Shown here: positions 6,866 to 62,516 of the stretch, piece by piece
How the letters are laid out: every line of letters begins with the position of its first letter
Numbering within the stretch: the stretch's first letter is position 1
DNA from: Escherichia coli
GTDB taxonomy: Bacteria; Pseudomonadota; Gammaproteobacteria; Enterobacterales; Enterobacteriaceae
Assembly: GCF_050320075.1 (NCBI RefSeq)
Contig: NZ_CP190018.1
Reading direction: 5' to 3' (one strand)
DNA length: 64,000 nucleotides
The notes under the pieces: model-generated
Seen by the model: only the letters and a program-made list of their open reading frames with translations
Told to the model about the DNA's origin: nothing
The model's database searches: none
Program-made: the position numbers and the translations under genes

Positions 6866-9037
6866 ATGAGTCAAACCATAACCCAGGGCCGTTTACGCAT
6901 TGACGCCAATTTTAAACGTTTTGTGGATGAAGAAGTTTTGCCGGGAACAGGGTTGGACGCTGCGGCGTTCTGGCGCAATGTTGATGAGATCGTTCACGAT
7001 CTGGCACCAGAAAATCGTCAGTTGCTGGCAGAACGCGATCGCATTCAGGCGGCGCTTGATGAGTGGCATCGCAGCAATCCGGGGCCGGTTAAAGATAAAG
7101 CGGCCTATAAATCTTTCCTGCGTGAACTGGGCTACCTGGTGCCACAACCGGATCGCGTGACGGTGGAAACCACGGGCATTGACAGCGAAATCACCAGCCA
7201 GGCGGGGCCACAGCTGGTGGTTCCGGCAATGAACGCCCGCTACGCGCTGAACGCGGCGAACGCTCGCTGGGGCTCACTGTACGATGCGTTATACGGCAGC
7301 GACATCATCCCGCAGGAAGGGGCGATGGTCAGCGGCTACGATCCGCAGCGCGGTGAGCAGGTTATCGCCTGGGTTCGGCGTTTCCTCGATGAATCACTAC
7401 CGCTGGAAAACGGCAGCTATCAGGATGTGGTGGCGTTTAAGGTGGTTGATAAACAATTACGCATCCAGTTGAAAAATGGTAAAGAAACCACGTTACGCAC
7501 CCCGGCGCAGTTTGTCGGTTACCGTGGCAATGCCGCTGCGCCGTCCTGCATTTTGCTGAAAAATAACGGCCTGCATATTGAGCTGCAAATCGATGCCAAC
7601 GGGCGGATTGGCAAAGACGATCCGGCGCATATCAACGATGTTATCGTCGAAGCGGCCATCAGTACCATTCTCGACTGCGAAGATTCGGTCGCGGCGGTTG
7701 ATGCGGAAGATAAAATCCTGCTGTACCGCAACCTGCTGGGCCTGATGCAGGGGACTCTGCAAGAGAAAATGGAAAAAAACGGTCGGCAAATCGTGCGTAA
7801 ACTGAATGACGATCGTCATTACACCGCCGCCGATGGCTCTGAAATTTCTCTGCACGGACGCTCGCTGCTGTTTATCCGCAACGTGGGTCATTTGATGACC
7901 ATTCCTGTGATTTGGGACAGCGAAGGCAATGAAATCCCGGAAGGCATTCTTGATGGCGTCATGACTGGCGCGATTGCCCTCTATGATTTAAAAGTGCAGA
8001 AAAACTCGCGCACTGGCAGCGTCTATATTGTGAAACCGAAAATGCACGGTCCGCAGGAAGTGGCGTTCGCCAACAAACTGTTTACCCGCATTGAGACAAT
8101 GCTCGGTATGGCACCGAATACCCTGAAAATGGGCATTATGGATGAAGAACGTCGGACCTCGCTGAACTTGCGTAGCTGTATCGCTCAGGCGCGCAACCGC
8201 GTGGCGTTCATCAATACCGGTTTCCTCGACCGTACCGGCGATGAAATGCATTCGGTGATGGAAGCTGGCCCGATGCTGCGTAAAAATCAGATGAAATCGA
8301 CGCCTTGGATCAAAGCCTACGAGCGTAATAACGTGCTTTCCGGTCTGTTCTGTGGGCTGCGCGGTAAAGCGCAAATTGGTAAAGGCATGTGGGCAATGCC
8401 GGACCTGATGGCAGACATGTACAGCCAGAAGGGCGACCAACTGCGTGCCGGGGCAAACACAGCCTGGGTTCCGTCACCAACCGCTGCTACGCTCCATGCG
8501 CTGCACTACCACCAAACCAACGTACAGAGCGTGCAGGCCAACATTGCCCAGAGCGAGTTCAATGCTGAATTTGAACCGCTGCTGGACGATCTGCTGACTA
8601 TTCCGGTGGCTGAAAACGCTAACTGGTCGGTGGAAGAGATCCAACAAGAGCTGGATAACAACGTGCAGGGGATTCTGGGGTACGTGGTGCGTTGGGTGGA
8701 GCAGGGGATTGGTTGTTCAAAAGTGCCGGATATTCACAACGTGGCGCTGATGGAAGACCGCGCAACGCTGCGTATCTCCAGCCAGCATATCGCCAACTGG
8801 TTACGTCACGGTATTCTGACCAAAGAACAGGTGCAGGCGTCGCTGGAGAATATGGCGAAAGTGGTTGATCAGCAAAACGCTGGCGATCCGGCTTATCGTC
8901 CGATGGCGGGGAATTTCGCTAACTCGTGTGCTTTTAAAGCTGCCAGCGATTTAATCTTCCTCGGCGTGAAACAGCCAAACGGCTATACCGAACCGTTATT
9001 ACACGCCTGGCGTTTACGCGAAAAAGAAAGTCATTAA
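6866..9037 (+). CDS. glcB: Malate synthase G.
   Basis: 723-aa ORF with a GAGGAG RBS upstream. The sequence is recognised as E. coli GlcB. Confidence 0.95.
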
Positions 9038-9391
9038 TAGCGTCAAAAAAGCCCCGGCAAGTTTTATTGTCGGGGCTATGATAGTAACTGCGGTAGTACA
9101 TTTATCCCGGAAATAACCGGAGCGATTATCAGGGTTTAACAATATTAAATACCCGTAGCGCATTACTAGCGGGCCTAAAACAACAATATGGACATCTTAA
9201 CGATACTCTGCGCCTGCGTGTGCGGAACAGAAACCCTTACCCGATATACTTGTTATGCCAGAGGTAGCAATTGCGTTAGCAGCGTACTGTTGCTGTAAAG
9301 TATAACGCCTATATTTTACAGTTCAGTCCTCTTTTGCTTATTACAACCTTAAGTATATCAAGCATATAAAGATAATAAGAGACTGAACAAT

Positions 9392-11074
9392 ATGGTTACC
9401 TGGACCCAAATGTATATGCCGATGGGAGGACTGGGGCTATCCGCTCTGGTCGCCCTGATCCCGATAATATTCTTCTTCGTTGCACTCGCGGTATTACGTC
9501 TGAAAGGACATGTCGCTGGAGCAATAACCCTTATATTATCTATCCTGATTGCAATATTCGCCTTTAAAATGCCGATTGATATGGCATTTGCTGCTGCGGG
9601 CTATGGCTTTATTTATGGTTTATGGCCTATTGCGTGGATTATTGTCGCGGCGGTATTCTTGTATAAATTAACCGTTGCCAGCGGCCAGTTCGATATTATC
9701 CGCAGCTCGGTTATCTCCATCACCGACGATCAGCGTTTGCAGGTGTTACTGATTGGTTTCTCCTTTGGCGCGTTGCTGGAAGGGGCGGCTGGCTTTGGTG
9801 CGCCGGTGGCGATTACCGGTGCGCTGCTGGTGGGCCTGGGCTTCAAACCGTTATACGCGGCGGGGCTGTGTCTGATTGCCAACACTGCGCCGGTGGCGTT
9901 TGGTGCGTTGGGCGTGCCGATTCTGGTCGCCGGTCAGGTAACGGGAATCGATCCGTTCCACATTGGCGCAATGGCGGGACGTCAGTTACCGTTCCTGTCG
10001 GTTCTTGTGCCGTTCTGGCTGGTAGCAATGATGGACGGCTGGAAAGGGGTGAAAGAGACGTGGCCAGCGGCGCTGGTTGCTGGGGGAAGCTTCGCTGTCA
10101 CTCAGTTCTTTACCTCTAACTATATTGGTCCGGAACTGCCGGATATTACTTCGGCGCTGGTGAGTATCGTCTCACTCGCTTTATTCCTTAAAGTCTGGCG
10201 GCCGAAAAATACCGAAACGGCAATCAGCATGGGACAATCCGCAGGTGCGATGGTGGTGAATAAACCATCTTCTGGCGGTCCCGTGCCTTCAGAATATAGT
10301 CTGGGGCAAATCATTCGTGCGTGGTCACCGTTTTTAATCTTAACGGTGCTGGTCACCATCTGGACCATGAAGCCGTTTAAAGCGTTATTTGCTCCGGGCG
10401 GCGCGTTTTATTCACTGGTGATTAATTTCCAGATCCCTCATTTGCATCAACAAGTGTTGAAAGCGGCACCCATTGTCGCCCAACCAACGCCAATGGATGC
10501 GGTGTTTAAATTAGACCCTCTCTCGGCTGGCGGCACCGCTATTTTTATTGCGGCGATTATCTCTATCTTCATCCTCGGCGTGGGCATCAAGAAAGGGATT
10601 GGCGTCTTTGCCGAAACGCTAATTAGTCTGAAGTGGCCGATATTGTCGATTGGCATGGTGCTGGCGTTCGCCTTCGTCACCAACTATTCCGGTATGTCCA
10701 CCACGCTGGCGCTGGTACTGGCAGGTACAGGCGTGATGTTCCCGTTTTTCTCACCGTTTCTCGGCTGGCTGGGCGTATTCCTTACCGGCTCGGACACCTC
10801 CTCTAACGCCCTGTTTGGTTCACTGCAATCGACCACGGCGCAGCAAATCAACGTCTCTGACACTCTGCTGGTGGCAGCAAATACCAGCGGCGGCGTAACT
10901 GGCAAGATGATCTCCCCGCAATCTATCGCCGTGGCCTGCGCCGCGACGGGCATGGTGGGCCGAGAATCTGAACTGTTCCGCTACACCGTGAAGCACAGTC
11001 TGATTTTTGCCAGCGTTATCGGCATTATCACGCTGTTGCAGGCGTATGTGTTTACCGGGATGTTAGTTTCGTAA
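9392..11074 (+). CDS. glcA: Glycolate/lactate permease (LctP family).
   Basis: 560-aa polytopic membrane protein downstream of glcB. Confidence 0.9.
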
Positions 11075-34982: not shown

Positions 34983-35010
34983 TTGAGATATAACCTTAAT
35001 ATATTTTGGT

Positions 35011-35043
35011 ACGCTACCGCCCTTGGCTCTAGCTACCAGCATG
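35011..35043 (-). promoter_or_regulatory. JUMPstart element containing the ops site (RfaH loading site).
   Basis: The minus strand reads CATGCTGGTAGCTAGAGCCAAGGGCGGTAGCGT. The ops core GGCGGTAGCGT is at 35021-35011 and ends 28 nt upstream of the kpsM ATG. Confidence 0.85.
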
Positions 35044-35391
35044 CTCGGGCGTACCATATGAGACAAACCAGAATGGACAGATAAATATTTCGTCTGGTAT
35101 TAGTTTGTCTTTTCTTTACGAAAATACTTATAGATTGGACAATGAAAAATTTGGTTTAAGGCAGTCCAACCTATGTAATGTTATTGAAACATCCTGCTAA
35201 TAATCTTAAATTTAATGTTTCATTAAGTTCTATCAATTTAAACACATTGATTTGCGAATTCTATCATTTAGACTTACAGATAACTCCAGTGTTTAATATG
35301 TAAACATGCCTCATAAATTGCAAGGTAGATTGCAGGTTGCTAATCTTTTGTTACTTATATAAAATCTGTTTTGTTTATTTTATATCAAATT

Positions 35392-55197: not shown

Positions 55198-56130
55198 GTT
55201 AAAAATCACACGGTGTTGCCAGTGGCAACAGCGATTAAAAAATGTACGGTGTTGCCAGTGGCAACAGTGGTTAAAAAATGTGCGGTGTTGCCAGTGGCAA
55301 CAGTGGTTAAAAAATGTGCGGTGTTGCCAGTGGCAACAGTGGTTAAAAAGTGTACGGTGTTGCCAGTGGCAACAGTGGTTAAAAAATATCCGGTGTTGCC
55401 AGTGGCAACAGTGGTTAAAAAATATCCGGTGTTGCCAGTGGCAACAGTGATTAAAAATCGCGCGGTGTTGCCAGAGGCAACAGTGGTTAAAAAGTGTGCG
55501 GTGTTGCCAGTGGCAACAGTGGTTAAAAAGTGTACGGTGTTGCCAGTGGCAACAGTGGTTAAAAAATGTGCGGTGTTGCCAGTGGCAACAGTGGTTAAAA
55601 AGTGTGCGGTGTTGCCAGTGGCAACAGTGGTTAAAAAATGTGCGGTGTTGCCAGAGGCAACAGTGGTTAAAAAGTGTACGGTGTTGCCAGTGGCAACAGT
55701 GGTTAAGAAATATACGGTGTTGCCAGTGGCAACAGTGGTTAAAAAGTGTGCGGTGTTGCCAGTGGCAACAGTGGTTAAAAAGTGTACGGTGTTGCCAGTG
55801 GCAACAGTGGTTAAAAAATGTGCGGTGTTGCCAGTGGCAACAGTGGTTAAAAAGCGTGCGGTGTTGCCAGTGGCAACGGTGGTTAAAAAATGTGCGGTGT
55901 TGCCAGTGGCAACAGTGGTTAAAAAGTGTACGGTGTTGCCAGTGGCAACAGTGGTTAAGAAATATACGGTGTTGCCAGTGGCAACAGTGATTAAAAATTG
56001 CGCGGTGTTGCCAGAGGCAACAGTGGTTAAAAAGTGTGCGGTGTTGCCAGTGGCAATAGTGATTAAAAATTGTACGGTGTTGGCAGTGCCAACAGTGATT
56101 AAAAATTGTACTGAGTTGGCACTGCCAACA
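55198..56130. repeat. Array of 26 tandem 36-bp repeats, each with a 7-bp inverted repeat core. It is a candidate centromere (sopC-like) or iteron origin.
   Basis: Unit GGTGTTGCCAGTGGCAACAGTGGTTAAAAARTGTRC with an exact 36-bp register starting at 55212. The core is TGTTGCCA-G-TGGCAACA. See findings. Confidence 0.95.
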
Positions 56131-56976: not shown

Positions 56977-58995
56977 ATGCGTCTCTTTTTGTGTGAGAAA
57001 CCTTCACAGGCCGGTGATATAGCCAGAGTACTTGGGGCTGCCAGACGTGTTGATGGTGCGATTGAAGGTAAGGACTTTGTTGTGACCTGGGCCTTTGGTC
57101 ACTTGCTGGAGCAGGCGCCACCGGAGGCGTATGGTGAGCAGTTTGGCAGTCCCTGGAAAATTGACGTTTTGCCGGTCTTTCCTGAACAGTGGCAGATGGT
57201 GGTGAAGGATAATGTCGGGAAGCAGTTTAATGTGATCAGCCGCCTTCTCCGTAAGGCTGATGAAGTGGTGATTGCCACTGACGCCGATCGTGAAGGCGAA
57301 ATTATCGCAAGGGAACTGCTGGATTATTGTGGTTATACCGGCGTTGTGCGCCGTCTCTGGCTGTCCGCACTGGATGAGAGCAGTATCAGGGAGGCGCTGG
57401 GCAGGATACTGCCCGGAGAGGAGACCGAGAAGTTATATGAAGCCGGTAAGGGACGCAGCCGGGCTGACTGGCTGACGGGGATCAACCTGACGCGTCTGTA
57501 TACCCTGAAAGCCAGGGAGTGTGGTGTGTCCGGCGTCCTCTCTGTTGGCAGGGTGCAGACGCCCACGCTTGCGATGGTGGTCAGACGGGATGCAGAAATC
57601 AAAAATTTTATTCCGGTACCTTACTGGCAACTGTATCTCTGGCTGGAGAAGGACAATGTGCGTTTTCGTACCTCCTGGATTGCGGCAGCGCAGTACTGCG
57701 ATACTGAAAAACGGTGTGTGAATGTGCAGGCGGCAACAGCCGTCCTGTCACAGTGTCGTCAGGCCGGTGTTGCTGTTGTCAGGGATGTCAGCAGCAGACG
57801 GGAGAAAAAGCAGCCTCCGCTGTGTTTTTCGCTCGGAACGCTGCAGGAGGTCTGTTCGCGCAAATTTGGCCTCGGCGCGCAGGCCGTTCTTGATATAGCC
57901 CAGTCGCTGTACGAAAAGCATAAGGCGACAACATATCCGCGTACAGATTGCGGTTATCTGCCTGTGTCGATGTACAAAGAAGTGCCTGACGTACTGGCAG
58001 CGCTGGAAAAAACCGATCCGGATATTGCCCCGGAGCTGGCAAAACTCAGTCCTGATATTGTGTCGGGGATCTGGAACGACAGGAAGATCACCGCGCATCA
58101 TGCGATAATCCCCACCCGTCAGCCGTTTAATATTGGGGCGCTGAGTGATAATGAGCTTAAGGTGTACCGGTTAATTCGTCAGCATTATCTGGCTCAGTTT
58201 TTACCCGTTCAGGAGCTGGATGTCACAGAGGCCACTTTTCTTGTTGCGGGGCAGTTGTTTGGAACGCGGGGGCGAGTGGAGGTTGTCAGGGGATGGCGTG
58301 CGCTTTTTGTGTCAGATTCGGCGGGAGAGGAAGAGGATGTTGCAGACGATGAGCAGGCGATGCCCCTTCCCGTACTGGCAAAAGGCGATGAATGTCGTCC
58401 TGCTGAAGCTGAACTCAAAGAGATGCAGACCACGCCACCGCGTCATTATACGGAAGGCACGCTGATTGCGGCGATGAAAAACGCTGCGGGGATGGTGAGT
58501 GATCCGGCACTGAAAAAAGTGTTACGCGAAAATGCGGGGCTGGGCACTGAAGCGACCCGCGCAGAAATACTGGAAACGTTGTTCACCCGCAAATATATCG
58601 AGAAGCAGGGTAAGCATATCCGTGCCACGCAACTGGGGGCGGAGCTGATAGCGGGATTGCCGGAGGCGCTGACCAGTCCGGGGACAACGGCGCTGTGGGA
58701 ACAGGCTCTGGATGATATTGCACAGGGTAAACTGTCACTGTCGTCATTTATGGAAAAGCAGAAACAGTGGCTTAACCACCTGGTGGCCGGTGCAAGGCAG
58801 CAGCAACTGCAGATCACGGCACCGGTTACGCCGGCATGCCCTCTTTGTGGGAGCAGAATGCGGAAAGTGAAGATGAAAAGCGGGAAAGGGGAATTCTGGA
58901 GCTGCCAGCGTTATCCGGAGTGTAAGGGAGTGATTTCAGAGCAGAAACCGACATCCGGGAAACGGGGCGGCAGAAAAATTAAAAAGCATGGATGA
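56977..58995 (+). CDS. topB: DNA topoisomerase III (type IA).
   Basis: Toprim motifs MRLFLCEKPSQ and TDADREGE. The active-site region is TTYPRTDCGYL. A C-terminal zinc ribbon reads CPLCGSRM...FWSCQRYPECKG. Confidence 0.9.
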   Translation: MRLFLCEKPSQAGDIARVLGAARRVDGAIEGKDFVVTWAFGHLLEQAPPEAYGEQFGSPWKIDVLPVFPEQWQMVVKDNVGKQFNVISRLLRKADEVVIATDADREGEIIARELLDYCGYTGVVRRLWLSALDESSIREALGRILPGEETEKLYEAGKGRSRADWLTGINLTRLYTLKARECGVSGVLSVGRVQTPTLAMVVRRDAEIKNFIPVPYWQLYLWLEKDNVRFRTSWIAAAQYCDTEKRCVNVQAATAVLSQCRQAGVAVVRDVSSRREKKQPPLCFSLGTLQEVCSRKFGLGAQAVLDIAQSLYEKHKATTYPRTDCGYLPVSMYKEVPDVLAALEKTDPDIAPELAKLSPDIVSGIWNDRKITAHHAIIPTRQPFNIGALSDNELKVYRLIRQHYLAQFLPVQELDVTEATFLVAGQLFGTRGRVEVVRGWRALFVSDSAGEEEDVADDEQAMPLPVLAKGDECRPAEAELKEMQTTPPRHYTEGTLIAAMKNAAGMVSDPALKKVLRENAGLGTEATRAEILETLFTRKYIEKQGKHIRATQLGAELIAGLPEALTSPGTTALWEQALDDIAQGKLSLSSFMEKQKQWLNHLVAGARQQQLQITAPVTPACPLCGSRMRKVKMKSGKGEFWSCQRYPECKGVISEQKPTSGKRGGRKIKKHG

Positions 58996-59015: not shown

Positions 59016-59218
59016 TTTGTTAAAGTACATACGCTTTGATGTATACCCCCGTTATCAGCGGGAAACAGAGTGGCGATTAAACAACGGCGTTGCTCTGTTT
59101 CTGATACAGCAACGACCACTGCGTCCGGTTGTGTTGCAAGGCGCACGAACTCCGTGAAAACCGCGTCGGGAGTGATCCCCGGAGAAAAGTGAGATAACCT
59201 CAGGGCTGGTAACCCGTG

Positions 59219-59248
59219 ACGGCGCTGAATTTTCAGCGCCGTTTTTTA
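59219..59248 (+). terminator. Strong rho-independent terminator inside the topB-ssb intergenic region.
   Basis: ACGGCGCTGA-attt-TCAGCGCCGT followed by TTTTTTA. Confidence 0.75.
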
Positions 59249-59314
59249 TTGGTGTTTTCTGCTTGACTTTATTTATGGCTGTTTTAAAAATGAGCATGCT
59301 AAATAGCTGCTTTG

Positions 59315-59472
59315 CAGCCAACCAATCTCCCGGTGGTCTGAGAGGGAGGCTTACGCGACCACACTGTCATCTTCGGATGACCAGCCAATGTTCCAGCAGT
59401 CTGAGAGGAGCGCCTTCGGGTGACTGCCAGCCAATGTTTCAGCGATCTGAGAGAAACGCCTTCGGGTGATTG
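59315..59472 (+). ncRNA. Three tandem pseudoknot units, a STAXI-like structured RNA or ssDNA motif.
   Basis: The units start at 59315, 59381 and 59427. Each has two interleaved stems with compensatory changes between units (details in findings). The context, between topoisomerase and SSB genes, fits the published STAXI description. Confidence 0.6.
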
Positions 59473-59685
59473 CAATATCCTCGTAGCCTGAAAGGGGATG
59501 CCTTTATGGCGGTACATCCGTTTAGCCTCTGGGAACGGATATCACCACTGGTGATTGAGGTACGTTTAACTGCACAGACAGCCGGAAATTCAGCTGATTC
59601 CGGCATCCCCGACGGGAACTATCACTCCCGTCAGGGCTGGTGATGTTCTCCGTCATATCTTTTTTTACTCCATGGAGAAATCATC

Positions 59686-60150
59686 ATGTCTGCAACTAAC
59701 TCTACTTCTGCAAAAACTGAATACTTCAACCTGACCATGAAAGGTCTTGGGTATCTCAGCAATGTTCGTCAGGTTAACCATCAGAACGGTTCGTTCCTCA
59801 GCTGCGTGATTAACGCACTGAGTGGACCAACGGACAATCCGTCCTATACGCGTTTTGATGTCACGGTTGCCGGTAAAGAGGCGACCACCCTGATCTCCCG
59901 CTGCCAGAAAGCAGTGGATGAGGACCGCAAGGTACTGCTTGGTTTTACGTTAAGCAACCTTGCCACCGACATTTTCACCCTGAACAAGGGGGAGCATGCC
60001 GGTGAGCAACGCGTCAGCCTGAAAGCCCGCCTGATCAAGGTGGACTGGATAAAAATAGGCCAGGAGCAGGTCTATAAGGCTGAAAAAGCGGAGTCCCAGC
60101 CACCGAGCCATGGCACCACAAAACGTGAATACGCAGAAGACTCCTTCTGA
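59686..60150 (+). CDS. OB-fold/SSB-like island protein, DUF3577-like. From memory it may be the 'STY4534 family ICE replication protein'.
   Basis: 154 aa with a GGAGA RBS. The family name is recalled, not verified. Confidence 0.5.
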   Translation: MSATNSTSAKTEYFNLTMKGLGYLSNVRQVNHQNGSFLSCVINALSGPTDNPSYTRFDVTVAGKEATTLISRCQKAVDEDRKVLLGFTLSNLATDIFTLNKGEHAGEQRVSLKARLIKVDWIKIGQEQVYKAEKAESQPPSHGTTKREYAEDSF

Positions 60151-60465: not shown

Positions 60466-61023
60466 ATGGCTTCACGCGGCGTAAACAAAGTTATCCTGAT
60501 AGGACATCTGGGGCAGGATCCGGATATCCGGTATTTCCCCAATGGCGGTGGCGCTGTGGCGAATCTGTCACTGGCGACCAGCGACACCTGGCGGGATAAA
60601 CAGAGCGGTGAAATGAAGGAAGTTACTGAATGGCACCGCGTTGTTCTCTATGGAAAACTGGCTGAAGTTGCCGGCGAGTACCTGCATAAGGGGTCGCAGG
60701 TGTATATAGAAGGCCAGCTTAAAACCCGTAAATGGTTTGACCAGCAGAATGGTGTGGACCGTTATTCAACTGAGGTTGTTGTGGGCGTGAATGGTGTCAT
60801 GCAGATGCTGGGTTCATCGCGTCAGCAGGGCGCTTCCGGTAATGGTGCTTCAGCACTGGCACAAGGGGGCCAGGGACATCCGCCGAAGACGACCGGACAG
60901 ACTGGTCGTGCCACCCGGACGACGTCAACGGGTAATGGTGCTCCACCAATGGACTTTGACGATGATATCCCCTTTATGGGGCTCGGGTATGGCATGGAAC
61001 GACGAATTATTCATGCCATGTAA
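60466..61023 (+). CDS. ssb: Single-stranded DNA-binding protein with a 15-aa extension beyond the canonical DDDIPF tip.
   Basis: [19 protein letters not shown]...[32 protein letters not shown] is an OB fold, followed by a Gly/Gln-rich linker. The protein ends [11 protein letters not shown] and then [15 protein letters not shown]. Confidence 0.9.
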
Positions 61024-61069: not shown

Positions 61070-62038
61070 GTGAGTGAAAAAGTTAACAAAATCACTATGA
61101 TTCATGACGGGGCGTTCAAGAAGACGCTTGAAGATCCCGCCGCAGTAAGGGACTTTCTTGAACAGGTCTTGACACACGATCAGATATCCCGCTGTAATCT
61201 TGATACAATAGAAGTTGAAAAGAATTCGTTCGTGACGGAAAGTTTGCGTCAGCATGCCTGTGATGTTTTGATCAGCATGAAGACAAACGACGGCAGGGAC
61301 GGATACATTTATACCTTAATCGAGCACCAGAGTTCGCCGGATAAATTCATCCCGCTGCGTATGATGCGATATATCCTGGCTGTAATGGAGCAACATGTTG
61401 AAAAGCATAAGTGTGCACCTGTGGTGATCCCCGTGTTGTTTTATCATGGTGCAATGCGGCCATATCCGTATCCGCTGAACTGGGTGGATTGTCTGGATGA
61501 CCCGGAGTACGGACGGGAGATTTATGGCGAGTCAAAGTCATTCAGTCTGGTGGATGTCAGTACGCTTGATGATGATGAAATTGAGCAGTATCGCCGGATG
61601 GCGGCGCTGATGTACACCATGAAGTCCGGAACTCAGGGTGATTTGATTGAGCTGATTGGTAAATCGATCACACTGACGGATAAGTATGGCAGTAGCATTC
61701 ACCTGAATACGGTGCTTACTTATCTGATGGAACTTTACCAGATGGATGTTGCTGAACTTTTTGAAGCAATATCCACACACTATCCCAGCCATAAGGGGGT
61801 GATTATGACGATAGCGGAACAACTGGAAGAGAAAGGTCGGGTTGAAGGTCTGGAGAAAGGCCTTGAGAAAGGCCTTGAGAAAGGCCGTGCTGAAGGCCGT
61901 GCTGAAGAGCGTCAAAAAGCGCTTGCAGAAACTTATGCATCTGTCCGTCGCATGAGCGATATGGGGATGTCAACGGAAGTTATTAAGCAGGCACTTCATC
62001 TTTCTGATGAACAGATTCAGGAAGCGCTTAATAATTAA
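61070..62038 (+). CDS. Rpn-family (YhgA-like, PD-(D/E)XK) recombination-promoting nuclease.
   Basis: GTG 61070 lies 5 nt after GGAGG (ATG 61098 is an alternative start). HDGAFKKTLEDPAAVRDFL...ACDVLISMKTNDG...YTLIEHQSSPD is the YhgA-like core. The C-terminus has GLEKG/GRAEG repeats. Confidence 0.75.
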   Translation: MSEKVNKITMIHDGAFKKTLEDPAAVRDFLEQVLTHDQISRCNLDTIEVEKNSFVTESLRQHACDVLISMKTNDGRDGYIYTLIEHQSSPDKFIPLRMMRYILAVMEQHVEKHKCAPVVIPVLFYHGAMRPYPYPLNWVDCLDDPEYGREIYGESKSFSLVDVSTLDDDEIEQYRRMAALMYTMKSGTQGDLIELIGKSITLTDKYGSSIHLNTVLTYLMELYQMDVAELFEAISTHYPSHKGVIMTIAEQLEEKGRVEGLEKGLEKGLEKGRAEGRAEERQKALAETYASVRRMSDMGMSTEVIKQALHLSDEQIQEALNN

Positions 62039-62516
62039 CCTCGCATCGTAATGATGTGGCAGAGCGCGACTGATGCGTCAGAACGTGTGATGCCCTGTGA
62101 ACACAGCGCCTGCCATTGTGCAGGCGTTTTTTTATCAATCAGTCTGGTAAATTGTGATGGAACTTTACCAGATGGATTTTGCTGAACTTTCTGAAGCAAT
62201 ATTCACACACTATCCCAGCCACAAGGGGGTGATTATGACGATAGCGGAACAACTGGAAGAGAAAGGCCTTGAGAAAGGCCGTGCAGAAGAGCGTCAAAAA
62301 GCGCTTGCAGAAACCTATGCATCTGTCCGTCGCATGAGTGATATGGGGATGTCAACAGAAGTTATTAAGCAAGCTCTTCAGCTTTCTGATGAACAGATTC
62401 AGGAAGCGCTTAATAATTAACCTCACATCGTAATGATGTGGCAGAGCGCGACTGATGCGTCAGAATGCGTGATGCCCTGTGAACACAGCGCCTGCCATTG
62501 TGCAGGCGTTTTTTTT
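61725..62516 (+). repeat. Tandem direct duplication of the rpn 3' end plus its terminator.
   Basis: 61725-62133 is repeated at 62155-62516 with scattered substitutions and a roughly 48-nt deletion in the GLEKG/GRAEG repeat region. The two copies are separated by a 21-bp spacer. Confidence 0.9.
62157..62420 (+). CDS. Free-standing copy of the Rpn C-terminal domain (87 aa).
   Basis: MELYQMDFAELSEAIFTHYPSHKGVIMTIAEQLEEKG...SDEQIQEALNN is near-identical to the last roughly 100 aa of the upstream Rpn. It has its own terminator copy (CGCCTGC...GCAGGCG followed by a T-run). Confidence 0.5.
   Translation: MELYQMDFAELSEAIFTHYPSHKGVIMTIAEQLEEKGLEKGRAEERQKALAETYASVRRMSDMGMSTEVIKQALQLSDEQIQEALNN

Follow-up and report, generated by a model that had tools for sequence, protein, structure and literature searches.

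In the phage T4 gene 32 operator, a 5′ pseudoknot nucleates autoregulation by a single-stranded DNA (ssDNA)-binding protein, and the HK022 put and Bacillus EAR elements are processive antiterminator RNAs. The STAXI RNA (Rfam RF01728), first described by Weinberg et al. in 2010 (PMC2864571), still has no known function. We find that a 64,000-nucleotide stretch of Escherichia coli DNA (contig NZ_CP190018.1, hereafter the window) carries a copy of STAXI, which the Rfam model matches at 59365-59518 on the plus strand over its full length (model positions 1-153 of 153), scoring 139.2 bits where the gathering score is 40.5, a more than threefold excess (E = 4.7e-30), a result reproduced on a repeat scan. 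The locus displays all features of the family: the host is enterobacterial, topB and ssb lie nearby, and the pseudoknots stand in tandem, show compensatory covariation and carry UUCG loops. The copy shows no essential difference from STAXI as described (PMC2864571). A preliminary description made from the sequence alone had called the element STAXI-like and had named the Rfam search that now bears it out; since this is a known family in its type context, the identification is correct and not new. The only other Rfam family above threshold in the window, the C0719 small RNA (sRNA), is unrelated to STAXI; EFASI, a second RNA of these mobile elements, has no Rfam match within the window, and a search of a phage collection gave no STAXI match. 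What does appear, from sequence comparison, to go beyond the Rfam model and the available STAXI literature is a fixed promoter, a terminal unit E, the heading of three operons in one integrative and conjugative element (ICE), and an attached ribosome-binding-site (RBS) switch. The locus adds no new kind of element; the comparative results make the function of STAXI experimentally approachable without yet explaining it, and lead us to lean slightly towards STAXI being a cis-acting 5′ leader RNA domain of some kind.

The array in the window comprises five units, A to E, at 59322-59562, each with segments in the pseudoknot order a-b-a′-b′ and each also containing an inner hairpin, together with two hairpins, H0 and H1 (Table 1). 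The Rfam-matched part consists of H1 and units B, C and D; relative to the model, the window copy adds unit A and H0 upstream and, like essentially all arrays examined, has unit E downstream. A structural descriptor that imposed no stem sequence recovers A at 59327-62, B at 59390-427 and C at 59436-73. These three are the units of the preliminary description, whose stem segments are all found where it had placed them, as are the TGAGA between b and a′ in each unit and the single G·U pair in stem b of unit C; the stems extend one pair further than it had given (5 bp for stem a, 6 bp for stem b), and its total of three units becomes five units and two hairpins. H1 covaries in homologues, as in GUUGUC-UUCG-GACAAC. 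Conservation continues past the Rfam model in an alignment of the window copy with seven other copies (alignment A1), and unit E ends nearly all arrays found. In 86 distinct arrays where unit E was located with no demand on pairing, its stem a is 98.8% paired compared to 62.6% in a slid control, with variants such as UCUGC/GCAGA, UCCGU/ACGGA, CCUGU/ACAGG, AUCGU/ACGAU and GUUGU/ACAAC.

Homologous units point to selection on this fold. A degenerate core pattern with both stems left free, run on species-representative genomes, retrieved 112 stretches, almost all from Enterobacterales and often several on one contig, and a gap-free alignment (A2) holds 83 distinct homologous units of identical length. 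Across these, 98.5% of 1162 cells are paired; shuffles give 84.0%, none of 500 attaining the real figure, and sliding the partners gives 33-49%. Both sides have changed in 9 of 14 pairs, and compensatory-change cells number 205 where 62 are expected. The pseudoknot-forming stem a has 99.0% of its cells paired and 4 of its 5 pairs changed on both sides, and even its closing G-C becomes A-U in Photorhabdus; for stem b the corresponding figures are 97.4% and 5 of 6 pairs. The compensatory covariation first claimed from three units of the window is thereby upheld for both stems. While the helices differ freely between copies, conservation extends to the CCAAU linkers and UGNGA loops, both single-stranded, and to a UUCG inner loop in 77 of the 83 units (in the window, UUCG is found in H1 and in units B and C). 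G·U far exceeds A·C (138 versus 7 cells, or 60 versus 7 after excluding the G·U that closes the inner hairpin and is conserved in 78 of 83 units), which argues that the plus strand is the folding strand. Judging from these alignments, the fold is selected, the folded strand is the plus strand of the window and its features are those of RNA, in agreement with the argument of Weinberg et al. that C(UUCG)G loops stabilise RNA and not DNA (PMC2864571).

The array lies behind a promoter of its own. The TTGACT hexamer that the preliminary description had noted as promoter-like is genuine: it is paired with AAAAAT at a 17-nt spacing, and its position is kept in homologues. Of 80 arrays, 42 have a sigma70-type promoter, typically TTGACA-N17-[G/A]AAAAT, whose end lies 30-39 nt ahead of the first unit, while among random 225-nt windows taken at these loci such a promoter occurs anywhere in only 13.6%, and equivalents of the terminator that closes the topB transcription unit precede the promoters of many homologous arrays. 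Because the promoter sits at a fixed distance upstream, STAXI probably forms the 5′ end of its own transcript, which in the window would start near 59298; no terminator was found after unit E, either in the window or in the 3-kb plasmid NZ_CP059920. Strand-specific RNA-seq of Pectobacterium atrosepticum detected three of three annotated STAXI copies, one of them directly after topB (PMC4710047), and this, with the positionally conserved promoter, strengthens the earlier, tentative idea of a promoter-driven leader. STAXI RNA has also been detected by RT-qPCR in vesicles of Shiga toxin-producing E. coli (PMC12370729) and is present in an avian pathogenic E. coli transcriptome (PMC11599210).

Gene order is consistent with a leader. 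The region is an ICE of the SPI-7/PAPI-1 type integrated beside tRNA-Phe, and E. coli ECCNB12-2 (NZ_CP033635), the record used for annotation, matches the window with 100% identity; locally, topB is followed by the terminator, the promoter, STAXI, a gene of the DUF3577/STY4534 family, a 67-codon open reading frame (ORF) and ssb. Genes after STAXI are co-oriented with it, a recognised family following on the same strand in 56 of about 75 arrays. The commonest gene directly downstream is DUF3577 (27 arrays, 25-150 nt away), followed by an Integrase_1/Phage_int_SAM_2 recombinase (18 arrays, 300-725 nt away), an uncharacterised family of 112-152 aa (11 arrays) and ArdC; TopB is found upstream in 6 other arrays. 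The same ICE in NZ_CP033635 has three co-oriented arrays, each heading a separate operon (DUF3577-ssb, recombinase and ArdA), of which the second is followed by EFASI and an Integrase_1 gene and the third heads a cluster with ardA and a DUF1281 gene. EFASI (RF02957) belongs to the same mobile elements, lying ~500 nt downstream of the second array of the ICE and of the plasmid copies; it differs from STAXI in structure and is not part of the window locus. The preliminary description had placed two ssDNA-binding genes downstream of the array, which holds for ssb and is not supported for DUF3577, whose profile shows no similarity to SSB profiles (hhalign probability 0.7%); DUF3577 has no sequence relatives in the PDB, and a single-sequence AlphaFold model (predicted local distance difference test score 40) is unusable.

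In the window, conserved sequence runs unbroken from unit E into an RBS switch, and the stretch of 124 nt that separates unit E from the start codon of DUF3577 keeps the same architecture across 24 distinct homologues. The minimum free energy (MFE) ground state is P1, P2 and an 11-15-bp RBS helix in 19 of 19 leaders tested; P1 differs in sequence among them (e.g., GUCAGAA/UUCUGAC and GUCUGCA/UGCAGAC), and P2 is 93-97% paired in MAFFT and covariance-model alignments. An alternative helix, P3, pairs the 5′ arm and loop of P2 with the anti-RBS strand and is mutually exclusive with both P2 and the RBS helix, so that its formation would free the RBS; releasing the Shine-Dalgarno (SD) sequence by constraint costs 4-14 kcal/mol, and P3 then usually forms. 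The P3 core is ~98% paired, and alignment columns 52-53 on its 5′ side covary with both partners in the MAFFT alignment. MAFFT misaligned P1 and distal P3, so that pair counts there are uninformative and were replaced by per-sequence folding, covariance-model alignment and duplex energies.

A covariance model (R1) built on P2 together with the RBS helix finds 59 confident copies, 48 of them distinct, before DUF3577, the uncharacterised family and other genes, sometimes at the second or third gene of one locus. Among the 48 copies, 10 of 12 pairs of the RBS helix are changed on both sides, and 91.7% of cells are paired compared to 85.3% in shuffles (0 of 500) and 41-63% when slid, in an alignment itself fitted to the model. 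The duplex of strands 1 and 3 (P3), which R1 does not favour, has a mean energy of -15.9 kcal/mol and a mean z of -4.5 relative to shuffles, with 90% of copies below -2; the duplex of strands 3 and 4 (the RBS helix) averages -14.6 kcal/mol. In these models, the leader is a bistable three-strand switch that is OFF by default. The switch has no Rfam family match even at E values up to 10; the 2017 survey by Weinberg may include a motif that precedes DUF3577 genes. Pairing of unit E with the switch was considered and set aside: CUGGUGAU is shared by the inner hairpin of E and the anti-RBS strand in the window and is not conserved at other loci.

If STAXI is a leader domain, it would be transcribed from its own sigma70-type promoter as the 5′-terminal domain of an untranslated DUF3577-ssb leader of ~390 nt, and the five-pseudoknot array would act in cis as an operon-level module, while the first gene would be kept translationally silent by the separate downstream switch (P2 and anti-RBS:RBS pairing versus P3). 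The array may serve as a multivalent platform for recognition, as protection, or in both roles. Recognition is suggested by helices that vary while CCAAU and UGNGA stay invariant and are repeated three to five times; protection from Rho or RNases, or recruitment of a factor that flips the switch, is suggested by the position of the array ahead of a long RNA that is untranslated by default. STAXI would then bind a factor, or affect transcription or RNA stability, and the array would presumably communicate with the switch.

The T4 gene 32 operator resembles the window leader in having its pseudoknot at the extreme 5′ end of an mRNA for ssDNA-handling products, a likeness that hints at how translation could be tied to ssDNA load; this compares layout alone, and gene 32 has a single pseudoknot and an unstructured AU-rich tract where the window has five pseudoknots and a structured three-strand switch, and STAXI also precedes recombinase and anti-restriction genes. 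HK022 put and Bacillus EAR, like STAXI, are structured RNAs placed right after a promoter at the head of long mobile-element operons, and antitermination would suit an operon that is translationally silent by default and hence exposed to Rho; neither shows sequence or structure similarity to STAXI, and the analogy is purely functional.

A more elaborate version, which we regard as speculative and rather doubtful, is a two-tier RNA control of the 'establishment' genes of enterobacterial ICEs and plasmids (DUF3577-ssb, tyrosine recombinase, anti-restriction), with STAXI as the operon-level half. In the gene-level half, three-strand switches with the invariant CCCGACGGGA hairpin would bury each RBS; the array would make the silent transcript resistant to Rho or RNase, hence completed and persistent, or would recruit a switch-flipping factor (such as an ssDNA-binding protein that the appearance of ICE ssDNA titrates away), or would do both. 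If true, this would couple translation of these genes to DNA transfer or replication and would reveal RNA-level timing of ssDNA-handling, recombination and anti-restriction genes in conjugative islands.

Several points weigh against a cis-acting leader. The Pectobacterium study labels its own copy a topB 3′ untranslated region or sRNA (PMC4710047). The nested MFE of the array is no better than that of shuffles (z of -0.1 for RNA on the plus strand and -1.0 on the minus strand; -2.0 and -2.75, respectively, with DNA parameters), z-scores that are uninformative for the choice of strand or molecule because pseudoknots are not modelled. Recombinase-linked arrays are followed by a different region of ~500 nt that ends in EFASI and has no switch, from which it follows that the function of STAXI is independent of the switch. 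Finally, some copies, in the O157:H7 tellurite/urease island and on plasmids of 3-5 kb, have no nearby downstream gene and would fit a trans-acting RNA or a decayed remnant.

These gene-less copies keep in play a reading of STAXI as an independent trans-acting small RNA, for example a multivalent CCAAU/UGAGA sponge that titrates a host or ICE protein, its position beside genes being incidental; the plasmids in question carry little else, and an architecture of repeated units is typical of protein sponges such as CsrB and RsmZ. Rfam classes STAXI as an sRNA, and its abundance suffices for detection in vesicles (PMC12370729). We nonetheless consider this reading unlikely, given the lack of a terminator after unit E, the co-oriented gene families downstream of most arrays and, in the window, the unbroken conservation from unit E into the RBS switch. 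A CsrA-type GGA sponge in particular is improbable, with GGA missing from about half of the units and lying inside stem a′ where present. The preliminary description had also raised a role as folded ssDNA, as had Weinberg et al. (PMC2864571), and STAXI might in this case be a single-strand origin, a priming signal or a tyrosine-recombinase site in ICE transfer or rolling-circle replication. Neighbouring genes handle ssDNA, arrays flank the recombinase gene on both sides in several elements, folding with DNA parameters gives the z-scores of -2.0 and -2.75, and a 3.1-kb Rep_1 plasmid (NZ_CP059920), which needs a single-strand origin, gives about a quarter of its length to STAXI and EFASI. On that plasmid, however, STAXI lies opposite rep, so that the displaced ssDNA would be its complement if the nick is on the rep-sense strand (a search for the nick site found no canonical CTTGATA, the sole and unverified candidate being CTTAAGGGATAA at 576 on the plus strand). 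The 138:7 ratio of G·U to A·C and the conserved G·U further establish that the strand which folds is the sense strand for the genes on either side, the promoter at a fixed distance upstream is of the double-stranded DNA type, the C(UUCG)G loops stabilise RNA and not DNA (PMC2864571), and RNA has been detected experimentally (PMC4710047); together these render a folded-ssDNA role improbable.

Least probable, and in our judgment very much so, is a type III antitoxin-like or decoy RNA that neutralises an endoribonuclease toxin, encoded either downstream or, as anti-defence, in the recipient. A promoter, tandem pseudoknot repeats and a small gene are the layout of toxIN, which ToxI RNAs share with STAXI, and STAXI is associated with anti-restriction genes. 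ToxI systems, however, have near-identical repeats, a terminator and a ToxN-like toxin gene, where the window has units that differ in their stems and conserve only their loops, no terminator between repeats and gene, and DUF3577, which has its own elaborate translational switch; the genes downstream of STAXI are diverse, and Pfam finds no ToxN/AbiQ-type protein among them. The conserved CUGAGAG/CUGUGAG was also compared by inspection with a hammerhead-like CUGANGA core and does not fit that motif.

Table 1. Coordinates and composition of the STAXI locus, its leader switch and related features. Positions refer to the window unless another locus is named.
Feature	Position	Strand	Description
topB (DNA topoisomerase III), upstream neighbour	56977-58995	+	annotation of NZ_CP033635
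Intrinsic terminator ending the topB transcription unit	59218-59243	+	11-bp GC-rich stem followed by T-run
Sigma70-type promoter	59263-59291	+	TTGACT 59263-68, 17-nt spacer, AAAAAT 59286-91
Hairpin H0	59306-59318	+	GCUGC-UUU-GCAGC; GUCGC-UUCG-GCGAC at the equivalent place in plasmid NZ_CP059920
Unit A	59322-59362	+	CCAAU linker, then UGAGA loop between b and a′; found by descriptor
Unit A, stem a	59327-31 / 59344-48	+	CTCCC / GGGAG; sequence and descriptor
Unit A, stem b	59333-38 / 59357-62	+	(G)TGGTC / GACCA(C); inner GCUUACGC between a′ and b′
Hairpin H1	59366-59381	+	GUCAUC-UUCG-GAUGAC; first element of the Rfam STAXI model
Unit B	59385-59427	+	inner hairpin GCC-UUCG-GGU, UGAGA loop; Rfam model and descriptor
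Unit B, stem a	59390-94 / 59407-11	+	(G)TTCC / GGAG(C)
Unit B, stem b	59396-401 / 59422-27	+	(G)CAGTC / GACTG(C)
Unit C	59431-59473	+	inner hairpin GCC-UUCG-GGU, UGAGA loop; Rfam model and descriptor
Unit C, stem a	59436-40 / 59453-57	+	(G)TTTC / GAAA(C)
Unit C, stem b	59442-47 / 59468-73	+	(G)CGATC / GATTG(C), one G·U
Unit D	59478-59515	+	third unit of the Rfam model, relaxed descriptor; missed by the preliminary description
Unit D, stem a	59478-82 / 59494-98	+	UCCUC / GGGGA; UGAAA loop; inner hairpin 59500-10
Unit D, stem b	59483-88 / 59511-15	+	GUAGCC / GGUAC, one bulged G
Unit E	59516-59562	+	terminal, outside the Rfam model; found by descriptor; inner hairpin 59542-54
Unit E, stem a	59516-22 / 59534-40	+	
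Unit E, stem b	59524-29 / 59557-62	+	AGCCUC / GAGGUA
Leader hairpin P1	59581-59604	+	GCCGGAA...UUCCGGC; in the MFE fold of 19/19 homologous leaders
Hairpin P2 (switch strands 1 and 2)	59608-59636	+	CCCGACGGGA...UCCCGUC-A-GGG, stem almost invariant
RBS-sequestering helix	59638-59688	+	anti-RBS strand 59638-53 pairs with SD, spacer and first AUG base at 59672-86
Alternative helix P3	59611-59654	+	strand 1 (59611-25) pairs with anti-RBS strand 59640-54
R1 switch copy, window	59607-59691	+	
R1 switch copies, other loci	L007 4738-4807 and 5207-5283		also L067 (3 copies), L044 (2 copies) and others
DUF3577 / STY4534-family 'ICE replication protein'	59686-60150	+	first operon gene; PF12101, E 1.4e-58; NCBIfam NF040584
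ssb	60466-61023	+	same operon as DUF3577; Pfam SSB PF00436, E 3.4e-35
Further STAXI/EFASI region of the same ICE	L120 (NZ_CP033635) 8002-8161, 8640-8762, 10738-10909		24-27 kb beyond the window copy

Several further observations concern STAXI and its surroundings. RefSeq annotates a 45-aa 'hypothetical protein' ORF at 59506-59643 (+), wholly inside units D and E, P1 and P2; as a leader peptide it is probably no gene, lying inside conserved RNA structure and showing frame-breaking indels in homologues (A1). The 11-mer TCAGGGCTGGT occurs twice, at 59201-59211 just before the topB terminator and at 59632-59642 at the 3′ flank of P2, which may be chance. Where STAXI precedes an Integrase_1 gene, the ~560-700 nt between unit E and that gene are conserved and non-coding in appearance (L022, L024, L026, L033, L054, L058, L076, L118 and others), contain a long hairpin, GCGUCACUUG...CAAGUGACGC, and have EFASI at their end; STAXI, this region and EFASI may be one structured leader RNA of ~800 nt.

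Copies away from such genes vary in their setting. A STAXI core with 96% identity occurs in about 580 of 5426 complete E. coli genomes, O157:H7 (L002, 7989-8183) among them, within a decayed stretch of the tellurite/urease island; it is surrounded by insertion sequence elements, and ssb, topB and a recombinase are not nearby. The rolling-circle plasmid NZ_CP059920 (L004, 3140 bp, Rep_1) has a STAXI 100% identical to window 59318-59530 (213 nt). Both this plasmid (2261-3110, minus strand) and pGF60-E (L003, 4371-5168) combine STAXI, ~500 nt of conserved non-coding sequence and EFASI without a recombinase, and EFASI in NZ_CP059920 is directly preceded by a promoter-like TTGAAA-16-AAAAAT.

Elsewhere in the window, a 36-bp unit is repeated 25.6 times (91% matches) at 55211-56130, each copy with the palindrome GTTGCCAGTGGCAAC, directly after a gene for an STY4528-family ICE replication protein and giving rise to spurious repeat-derived ORFs on both strands; an array of iteron or centromere-like type is conceivable. 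The C0719 sRNA is full-length (RF00117, 298 bits) at 9092-9313 (-), which identifies the left part of the window as E. coli core chromosome, and a JUMPstart-like element at 35010-35046 (-) in the capsule (kps) region scores 32.8 bits, just below the gathering score of 35. Beyond ssb, a gene for an Rpn-family recombination-promoting nuclease (61070-62038, +) is followed by a truncated C-terminal duplicate at 62154-62420 (+).

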